This document shows, piece by piece, positions 5,580 through 7,470 of a DNA stretch of 39,723 nt (position 1 is the stretch's first letter; each line of letters opens with the position of its first letter). The stretch lies in the IMG/VR virus record IMGVR_UViG_2537562231_000011; one strand, 5' to 3'. The notes beneath the pieces are model-generated. The model saw nothing but the letters and a program-made list of their open reading frames with translations. It had not been told where the DNA came from and did not search any database. This DNA is from a virus (taxonomy: Duplodnaviria; Heunggongvirae; Uroviricota; Caudoviricetes). The position numbers and the translations under genes are program-made.

Positions 5580-7307
5580 ATGGCGACGTTACGTGAACTG
5601 ATTATCAAAATTTCGGCAAATTCACAGTCATTCCAGTCGGAGATCCAGCGAGCGTCCCGTATGGGCAGTGAATATTACCGGACCCTGCAGAATGGCGGGC
5701 GTCAGGCCGCTGCGGCAGCCCGGGAGCAGCGACGTGCCCTGGCAGAACTGAACAGCCAGTTGACGGAAATCCGCGCTTCGGCTGTCGGAATGACCGGTGC
5801 GTTTGCCGGTGCCTTTGCCACCGGACACCTGATTTCACTGGCGGATGAGTGGAGTTCCGTGAATGCCCGTCTGAAACAGGCATCACAGTCATCCGATGAA
5901 TTTTCGTCATCACAGAAAGTGCTGATGGATATCAGTCAGCGGACAGGTACCGCTTTTTCGGATAATGCGGCCCTGTTTGCCCGTTCGGCAGCCTCGATGC
6001 GTGAATATGGTTACAGTGCTGATGATGTGCTGAAGGTGACGGAGGCCATTTCCACGGGGCTGAAAATCTCCGGTGCCAGTACGGCTGAGGCGGGTTCGGT
6101 GATCACCCAGTTCAGCCAGGCGCTGGCACAGGGTGTGTTGCGCGGTGAGGAATTTAATTCGGTCAATGAAAGTGGTGACCGGATCATTCGTGCACTGGCT
6201 GCGGGTATGGGCGTGGCCCGTAAAGACCTTAAGGCGATGGCGGACGACGGCAAACTGACGGCGGATAAAGTCGTTCCTGCGTTAATCAGCCAGCTGGGGG
6301 TATTGCGTGATGAATATGCCGCCATGCCGGAAACGGTCTCTGACGGGATCACAAAGGTGGAAAACGCCTTTATGGCCTGGGTGGGTGGCGCGAATGAAGC
6401 CAGCGGAGCGACGAAAACGCTCTCCGGCGTGCTGAACGGTGTTGCCGGTAATATTGATAATGTGGCAACAGCCGCGGGGGCGCTGGTTGCCGTCGGGGTT
6501 GCCCGGTACTTTGGCAATATGGCCTCCGGAGCGGTGTCTGCCACGGCAGGACTTGTGACGGCAGCACGTAATGAAGTGGCACTGGCGGAAGCACAGCTCA
6601 GGGGGACGCAGATTGCCACGGCGCGGGCAAGGGCAGCCGTGTACCGTGCTCAGCAGGCCGTGGCGGCAGCCCGCGGGACGGAGATGCAGATTGCTGCAGA
6701 AGCCCGTCTGGCGGCCACACAGGAACGCCTGAACAGAAATATTGCTGCCAGAACCGCAGCCCAGAATGCGCTGAACAGTACAACGGCGGTGGGCTCACGT
6801 CTGATGACTGGTGCGCTGGGGCTGGTTGGTGGCGTACCCGGACTGGTGATGCTGGGGGCAGCAGCATGGTATACGCTGTACCAGAATCAGGAGCAGGCCA
6901 GGGAGTCAGCGCGCCAGTATGCACTGACGATAGATGAAATCGCGCATAAAACGCCGTCAATGTCTTTGCCTGAAGCCTCAGATAATGAAGGACGAACACG
7001 GGCGGCGCTGACAGAGCAGAACCGGCTGATTGATGAACAGGCCAGTCGGGTGAAATCCCTGCAGGAAAAAATCGCAGGATATCAGTATGTTCTGGCGAAC
7101 CCGGGCTGGACGACCGGTGACGGATTCATGATAAACCATCTGACATCGGTGAAGACCGTAACGGAAGGGCTTGCTCAGGCAACAGAGCAGCTTGCCGTTG
7201 AGCAGTCCCGTCTGGCACAGATGCAGGAAAAAGCGCAGTCCATTCAGGATGTGCTTGCCGGGCTGGAAGACCGTCGTGTGGCGTTAATTCGTCATATAAC
7301 CAGGTGA
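5580..7307 (+). pseudogene. Tail tape measure protein (lambda family), N-terminal 575 codons; 3' part displaced by the Mu-like insertion
   Basis: Ala/Gly-rich, coiled-coil-rich sequence typical of tape measure proteins, in the expected position. The ORF ends at a stop created at the junction with the Mu-like left end (~7305); lambda-type tape measures are considerably longer. Confidence 0.7.
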
Positions 7308-7470
7308 ATCATTTGATACCGACAAGGGGTTTAGTGAAAGGAGGTGAAATCACCTGTAAGATACTGAAATAAAACAGGTGATGGCTAGATGTGCGGATAA
7401 GGTCTATTTGATACCGATTGTGCAATAATTAGTCATTTATTATAAAATCGGCAACTCATTTGATACTGTG
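7305..7470 (+). promoter_or_regulatory. Prophage left end with three direct copies of a putative transposase-binding motif YATTTGATACYG
   Basis: Copies at 7309-7321, 7404-7416 and 7456-7468. One terminal site then a paired set ~95 bp away, resembling the L1 / L2-L3 layout of the Mu left end; CATTTGA resembles the CACTTGA core of Mu end sites. Confidence 0.5.

Follow-up and report, generated by a model that had tools for sequence, protein, structure and literature searches.

An Sp18-like Mu-like prophage inside the tape measure gene of a lambdoid prophage, very probably placed there by transposition

Ten Sp18-like Mu-like phages have been described in 13 closed genomes of Escherichia coli that makes Shiga toxin (STEC), where they occupy variable sites; six of the ten lie inside mobile elements, and several reside in Shiga toxin (Stx) phages (PMC10132054). 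Here we analyze the complete draft contig ADUM01000003.1 of assembly GCA_000184765.2 (39,723 bp; hereafter, the window), in which the tape measure gene of a lambdoid prophage is cut short at position 7294 and a Mu-like element begins at position 7295. We consider it very likely that a Sp18-like Mu-like temperate phage integrated by transposition into codon 572 of the resident lambdoid tape measure gene. Insertion of such phages into other prophages is already published (PMC10132054), and the locus thus represents a known group and a known event.

The closest described phages, Mu_JNE122137 and Mu_JNE082796, reside in Stx phages LC727895 and LC727881 (PMC10132054), and are 93–94% identical to the element at the nucleotide level in the early region. 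The Sp18-like STEC phages share its terminal sequence, its gene order and the 4-bp flanking repeats of its relatives, and are likewise found inside other prophages. The window differs from the LC727895 and LC727881 copies in that its left end reads TA, whereas theirs reads TG, and in that its target is a lambdoid tail gene. The likeness to Sp18 of E. coli O157:H7 Sakai follows the statement made in PMC10132054 about phages of the LC727881/LC727895 type.

Bacteriophage Mu shares with the element the left-end order of divergent repressor, ner, A, B, Gam and Mor, a contractile tail, an invertible tail-fibre segment with a Gin-like invertase, Com/Mom, transposition into variable sites, and three transposase-site motifs per end. 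By contrast, Mu in the strict sense generates a 5-bp target duplication rather than a 4-bp one, has TG...CA termini rather than TA/TG...TA, and encodes a Mu-c type repressor in place of the XRE/HTH_3 type; in the transposase of the element, only the N-terminal MuA domain is detectable. Judged from its sequence, the element is a member of the Sp18-like Mu-like phages; because termini, duplication length, repressor type and MuA similarity differ, it is not Mu in the strict sense.

The interrupted gene corresponds to the open reading frame (ORF) at 5580-7307 on the plus strand, with 575 codons. Its product matches the Pfam profile TMP_3 and NCBIfam tape_meas_nterm, and is covered by Phage_HK97_TLTM (Pfam) at profile positions 1-177 of 295 only and by PHROG 339 at profile positions 3-589 of 1123. 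The Pfam matches Phage_TAC_1 and Phage_tail_T are located upstream of it, at the position of the G/T tail chaperones. The ORF is assigned, from these profile matches, to a tape measure protein of the lambda/HK97 type, although it is not a complete one: it lacks what remains of the Phage_HK97_TLTM region, and also the Tape_meas_lam_C domain (PF09718) that homologues carry at the C-terminus. The ORF divides at the junction as follows:

5580-7294, plus strand: 5' part of the lambdoid tape measure gene (codons 1-571 and a further 2 nt, out of ~1080 codons)
7295-7307, plus strand: element-derived ORF tail (completes the H codon with its third base and adds I, T, R and a TGA stop)

A comparison with the intact E. 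coli homologue, a 3243-nt gene (L002 3581-6823; WP_406871259.1, 1080 aa), shows the truncation point to the base. The window is 98.3% identical to this gene over its first 1715 nt and unrelated past 7294, so that it reads ...TTCGTCA|TATAACCAGGTGAATC where the intact gene reads ...TTCGTCA|GCAGGCGGCAGAGC. A search with positions 7095-7494 returned hundreds of complete genomes whose matches, located in annotated tape measure genes, are 100% identical over 7095-7294 and end there; none of the complete E. coli genomes in this search spans 7294|7295. The translation ends in ...RVALIRHITR* in the window and continues as ...RVALIRQQAAEQ... in the intact protein. Because similarity ends at 7294, the last (H)ITR residues and the TGA stop come from the inserted DNA.

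The DNA to the right of the junction begins with the exact terminus of a mobile element. The left terminus at 7295 reads TATAACCAGGTGAATCATTTGATACC, with the junction at 7294|7295, and the terminus T[A/G]TAACCAGGTGAATCATTTGATACC is common to the window, E. coli 2015C-3108 and the Stx1a phage record LC727895, in which it is annotated as 'region of the inserted Bacteriophage Mu-like phage'. Since homology to the tape measure gene ends at 7294 and the shared terminus starts at 7295, the true left end lies 10 bases 5' of the TG at 7305. The terminal dinucleotide of the window copy is TA. There are exactly three occurrences of the motif YATTTGATACYG in the window (39.7 kb), all on the plus strand, against ~0.01 expected by chance, and none of 100 shuffled sequences reached three. 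The element and its left-end motifs are located as follows:

7295-39723, plus strand: Sp18-like Mu-like transposable prophage, left 32.4 kb of ~38.6 kb (99.95% identity to the prophage of E. coli 600029)
7310-7321, plus strand: end motif L1 (CATTTGATACCG), a putative transposase-binding site (element positions 16-27)
7405-7416, plus strand: end motif L2 (TATTTGATACCG) (element positions 111-122)
7457-7468, plus strand: end motif L3 (CATTTGATACTG) (element positions 163-174)

The right end, read in the relative from strain 600029, carries three inverted copies of the motif, of which R1 occupies positions 16-27 from the terminus and mirrors L1. L1 stands apart from L2 and L3, and R1-R3 are clustered; we take this arrangement to be that of attL and attR in Mu.

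The identity of the element is provided by a near-identical prophage in E. coli 600029 (NZ_CM128582, 3725216-3763849; 38,634 bp; L004), which interrupts a gene of the SgrR family. Positions 7293-39723 of the window are 99.95% identical to this prophage over 32.4 kb (L004 5214-37647), and the prophage runs a further 6.2 kb past the window match to its right end, ...CGCCGCGCTATA. The two sequences differ by 14 substitutions and three single-base homopolymer indels, all three of them intergenic. The indels, at 8169, 10595 and 12101, are single-base deletions in the window relative to 600029, and one falls in the repressor-ner control region; they could be draft sequencing errors or real differences. 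Near-identical copies with the same TA left terminus also reside in strains JE86-ST05 and HH35, at rhs and diguanylate cyclase gene sites. The copies of 600029, JE86-ST05 and HH35 thus represent the same element, with the same TA end and end motifs, at insertion sites that differ from that of the window, which shows that near-identical copies are mobile.

The early genes of the element follow the order of Mu, as the original prediction had noted for repressor, Ner and transposases A and B. Pfam and PHROG matches assign them as follows:

7541-8086, minus strand: repressor of the XRE/HTH_3 type, 181 aa (Pfam HTH_3; PHROG 3037 transcriptional repressor, E=4.5e-60)
8272-8502, plus strand: Ner-like small DNA-binding protein, 76 aa (Pfam HTH_35, E=1e-21; PHROG 769)
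8505-10592, plus strand: transposase A, 695 aa (Pfam HTH_Tnp_Mu_1, E=1.7e-8, and Mu-transpos_C, E=2e-17; PHROG 310, E=1e-211)
10674-11606, plus strand: MuB-like AAA+ transposition protein, 310 aa (Pfam AAA_22 and Phage-MuB_C, E=7.8e-25; PHROG 296)

The repressor gene diverges from the early operon, and Pfam matches to Gam, GemA and Mor follow the repressor-ner-A-B set in the window. In the early region of the 600029 prophage, RefSeq lists a regulator in divergent orientation, an HTH protein, a protein labelled 'Mu transposase C-terminal domain', an AAA ATPase, and Gam and Mor. Its late genes encode lysis proteins, a DUF935 portal and other head proteins, the sheath, tube, tape measure and baseplate of the tail, tail fibres with a Gin-like recombinase by the invertible segment, and Com and Mom. 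The RefSeq/PGAP annotation of this 99.95% identical relative contains no integrase, in line with the lack of an integrase that had been predicted for the element. Over its visible 32.4 kb the Mu-like element looks intact.

A search of the PDB with transposase A detected the MuA structure over the 76-aa N-terminal domain only (E=6.7e-6), and the catalytic core gave weak matches to retroviral integrases, not to MuA. The nearest phage transposases outside the group are those of Yersinia phages vB_YpM_5/6 (81% nucleotide identity over part of the gene), with further relatives in Pseudomonas phage VW-6B (47%) and in phages of the D3112/B3 type (~30%). The phage is thus a mosaic of early modules, with an XRE/HTH_3 repressor and a transposase closer to those of Yersinia and Pseudomonas transposable phages than to MuA, and late modules that are Mu-like.

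These results bear out much of what had been claimed for the left junction. The 575-codon lambda-family tape measure ORF is present, the three spaced end motifs stand at 7310, 7405 and 7457, and a Mu-like prophage does begin inside the lambdoid gene, with similarity to that gene stopping at 7294 and the exact terminus of a mobile element following from 7295. The claim that the ORF stops where a TG dinucleotide opens the element was right about the truncation by the element but not about its boundary: the TG at 7305 belongs to the stop codon, TGA, and the terminus lies at 7295 and reads TA.

Both ends of the element were read in six complete relatives, which occupy six different sites and measure 38.6–40.0 kb. 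The targets and flanking repeats are as follows:

E. coli 600029: SgrR-family gene, flanking repeat AACA
E. coli 2015C-3108: lambdoid tape measure gene, flanking repeat CGGG
JE86-ST05: rhs gene, flanking repeat CGTG
HH35: diguanylate cyclase gene, flanking repeat TACG
LC727895: Stx1a phage, flanking repeat AGAG
LC727881: Stx2c phage, flanking repeat CATC

Direct repeats of 4 bp flank the prophage in all six relatives, the fifth base matches in none of them, and the 4-bp repeats of LC727895 and LC727881 are also marked in their GenBank records. We rejected the idea that the duplication measures 5 bp and that the element boundaries are shifted, as no shift yields a direct repeat in any of the six cases. 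All six share the right end ...CGCCGCGCTATA, which finishes in ...GCTATA and hence in TA, not CA. The left dinucleotide is TG in three of the relatives and TA in the other three, as it is in the window. The original prediction had called for a 5-bp duplication matching the bases left of 7305 and for a right end in CA; neither holds in the relatives, and the duplication to be expected in the window is GTCA at 7291-7294. The 4-bp duplication and the TA features of the Sp18-like phages look real, and our literature search found no paper that discusses a 4-bp duplication in Mu-like phages.

The right end in this strain lies ~6.2 kb past the contig end. From the 4-bp repeats of the six relatives, one further feature is placed at the left junction:

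7291-7294, no strand: predicted left copy of the 4-bp target duplication, GTCA

By analogy with the relatives, the right junction is predicted to read ...GCTATA GTCA GCAGGCGGCAG... and to lead into the 3'-terminal 1.5 kb of the tape measure gene, ~38.6 kb downstream of the left junction. The same junction can be spelled ...GCTATA-GTCA-GCAGGCGG... or ...AAAAAAATCGCCGCGCTATA GTCA GCAGGCGGCAGAGCAGAATAAGGTG....

The proposed course of events is drawn by analogy with Mu. The phage would arrive by infection or by transposition, and a DDE transposase would carry out strand transfer into the tape measure gene. Transposase A, aided by the B ATPase, would bind the L and R arrays of YATTTGATACYG sites, and the two 3' ends would be joined to the target at positions four bases apart. 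Once the gaps of this 4-bp stagger had been filled by repair, the 4-bp duplication would result, with the tape measure gene split after codon 571 and the left terminus left at 7295.

Several observations weigh against a simple insertion by transposition. The left terminus reads TA and not the canonical TG, which taken alone might point to a crippled end. The contig stops inside the element, so that neither its right end nor the second GTCA nor the 3' part of the tape measure gene was seen. The right-junction pattern ATCGCCGCGCTATA N0-8 GCAGGCGGCAGAGCAG is absent from genome_contigs, viral_contigs and metagenome_contigs, collections that evidently do not include the source assembly, and a protein-cluster search with the predicted fusion protein returned none that begins with the N-terminus MKCKSVSKKSPRYS derived from the element; two fragment proteins beginning close to the junction belong to other assemblies. 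The first of these points loses its force because TA-ended copies are found at four different sites, the window included, and the TA terminus was accordingly rejected as a disabling mutation or a sequencing error. The left junction is likewise absent from genome_contigs and viral_contigs; the source assembly is therefore not part of them, and the negatives for the right junction weigh little.

An alternative in which the left junction is real but the locus has been rearranged, by replicative transposition or by recombination between two copies that produced a deletion or inversion, would leave no tape measure remainder after the right end. Mu-type elements cause adjacent deletions and inversions, some E. 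coli genomes contain up to six places that match the late region of the element, and the right junction was not found in the collections scanned. We nevertheless regard a rearrangement as decidedly unlikely, since the assembly runs unbroken through the left junction and 32 kb of the element, which argues for a single copy, and all six complete relatives are simple insertions with 4-bp duplications. An assembly chimera, which would have joined a tape measure gene and a Mu-like prophage that lie apart in the cell, is less probable still. The window is a draft whole-genome shotgun contig bounded by repeats, with an insertion sequence at one end and an invertible segment at the other, and its junction is absent from all complete E. 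coli genomes; yet the join falls to the base on the biological terminus, as at six independent sites, and the tape measure gene and the element end share no repeat that could mislead an assembler. That the 575-aa protein is a natural short tape measure with the element merely adjacent has a negligible probability. Nothing speaks for it beyond an ORF with a stop codon, and it is refuted by homologues of 98–100% identity that continue to 1080 aa, with Pfam and PHROG profiles cut midway and the last codons and stop within the element terminus. We thus strongly infer a simple insertion of the phage in this strain.

The consequence for the lambdoid prophage follows from the coding capacity that is left. 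The gene encodes only 571 native residues followed by HITR, and the C-terminal 509 residues, including the Tape_meas_lam_C domain of the homologues, are cut off from the N-terminal part. The lambdoid prophage is therefore without a normal tape measure and most likely tail-defective, a predicted phenotype that makes the earlier claim of a non-functional tail a reasonable one. The portal gene of the same prophage carries another interruption. The region upstream of the tape measure gene contains the following features:

1-313, minus strand: fragment of an IS66-family element, accessory TnpA (NCBIfam IS66_access_TnpA, E=1.7e-19)
314-5532, plus strand: lambdoid late genes 5' of the tape measure gene (Pfam; 98–99% identity to annotated E. 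coli prophages)

The late genes at 314-5532 comprise a portal (two ORFs), a head-tail connector, head closure, an HK97-gp10-like protein, tail completion, the major tail protein and chaperones G and T, and across 314-7294 the window shows 98–99.9% identity to the late region of lambdoid prophages frequently met in E. coli chromosomes. The IS66-family fragment adjoins the lambdoid portal gene ~150 nt inside its 5' end: homology to an intact prophage starts at window position 314, which corresponds to L011 4949, and the portal coding sequence in L011 starts at 4800. The IS66-family insertion represents a second disruption of the same lambdoid prophage, and it shows that this prophage is decaying anyway.

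Two further observations concern the portal region. The second portal-region ORF contains a 162-bp in-frame tandem repeat at 1751-2121 (2.3 copies, 97% matches), of which the homologous prophage L011 has one more copy. According to RefSeq, the portal gene is frameshifted in relatives.

A second insertion into the same tape measure family is present in E. coli 2015C-3108 (NZ_CP027307), a case that surfaced through the search with the junction itself. It involves the same phage group in the same orientation, and RefSeq marks both gene fragments as partial. The element lies between these fragments (3087 nt and 162 nt), which share exactly 4 bp when placed on the intact gene. The insertion differs from that of the window in its site (at about nt 3083 of the gene, as opposed to nt 1715), in the element, which is ~93% identical, and in its TG left end. 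The left end of the phage lies next to this tape measure gene in one of the 232 complete genomes that carry the phage late region, and there is therefore no sign of a tape-measure hot spot.

A more far-reaching idea is that Sp18-like phages land preferentially in resident, transcriptionally silent lambdoid prophages, and so disable the virion genes of competitors. A related point is the 4-bp stagger and non-CA termini with which their transposase, unlike that of Mu, would work. The two independent insertions in the same tape measure family and the six of ten published copies in mobile elements (PMC10132054) hint at such targeting. We consider it unlikely, as these hints are anecdotal only, just one of the 232 complete genomes has the phage left end beside this gene, and the survival of neutral insertions would explain any enrichment.

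The contig end at 39723 falls in a tail-fibre gene beside the invertible segment, and it was probably this segment, next to the Gin-like recombinase, that broke the assembly. Positions 39446-39589 show an 87% inverted match to a downstream segment of the 600029 prophage (L004 38579-38721), which marks the invertible (G-like) segment. Beyond the reach of the window, the interval from the invertase to Com/Mom (L004 39441-41495 and neighbours) contains, in the relatives, a 2-kb DUF6645 gene along with small genes of the DUF1378 and DUF826 types; these genes are possible accessory or defence cargo. A cluster search with the Mom protein of the 600029 prophage returned a 96% representative only. PGAP annotates a 'tRNA-OTHER' in the relatives (L004 22674-22753), between head morphogenesis and virion morphogenesis genes. 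The corresponding region of the window (~24750-24829, minus strand) has no support from ARAGORN or Rfam, and this feature was set aside.

Students of transposition will find a small curiosity in the 4-bp duplication and the TA termini, which do not amount to a new kind of system. The boundary at 7294|7295 and the duplication length are needed to locate the other junction. The locus is of importance mainly for its annotation: what reads as a 575-aa 'tape measure protein' is a truncated pseudogene, the lambdoid prophage that carries it is defective, and the 32 kb that begin after 7294 belong to a separate transposable phage, which is probably active.

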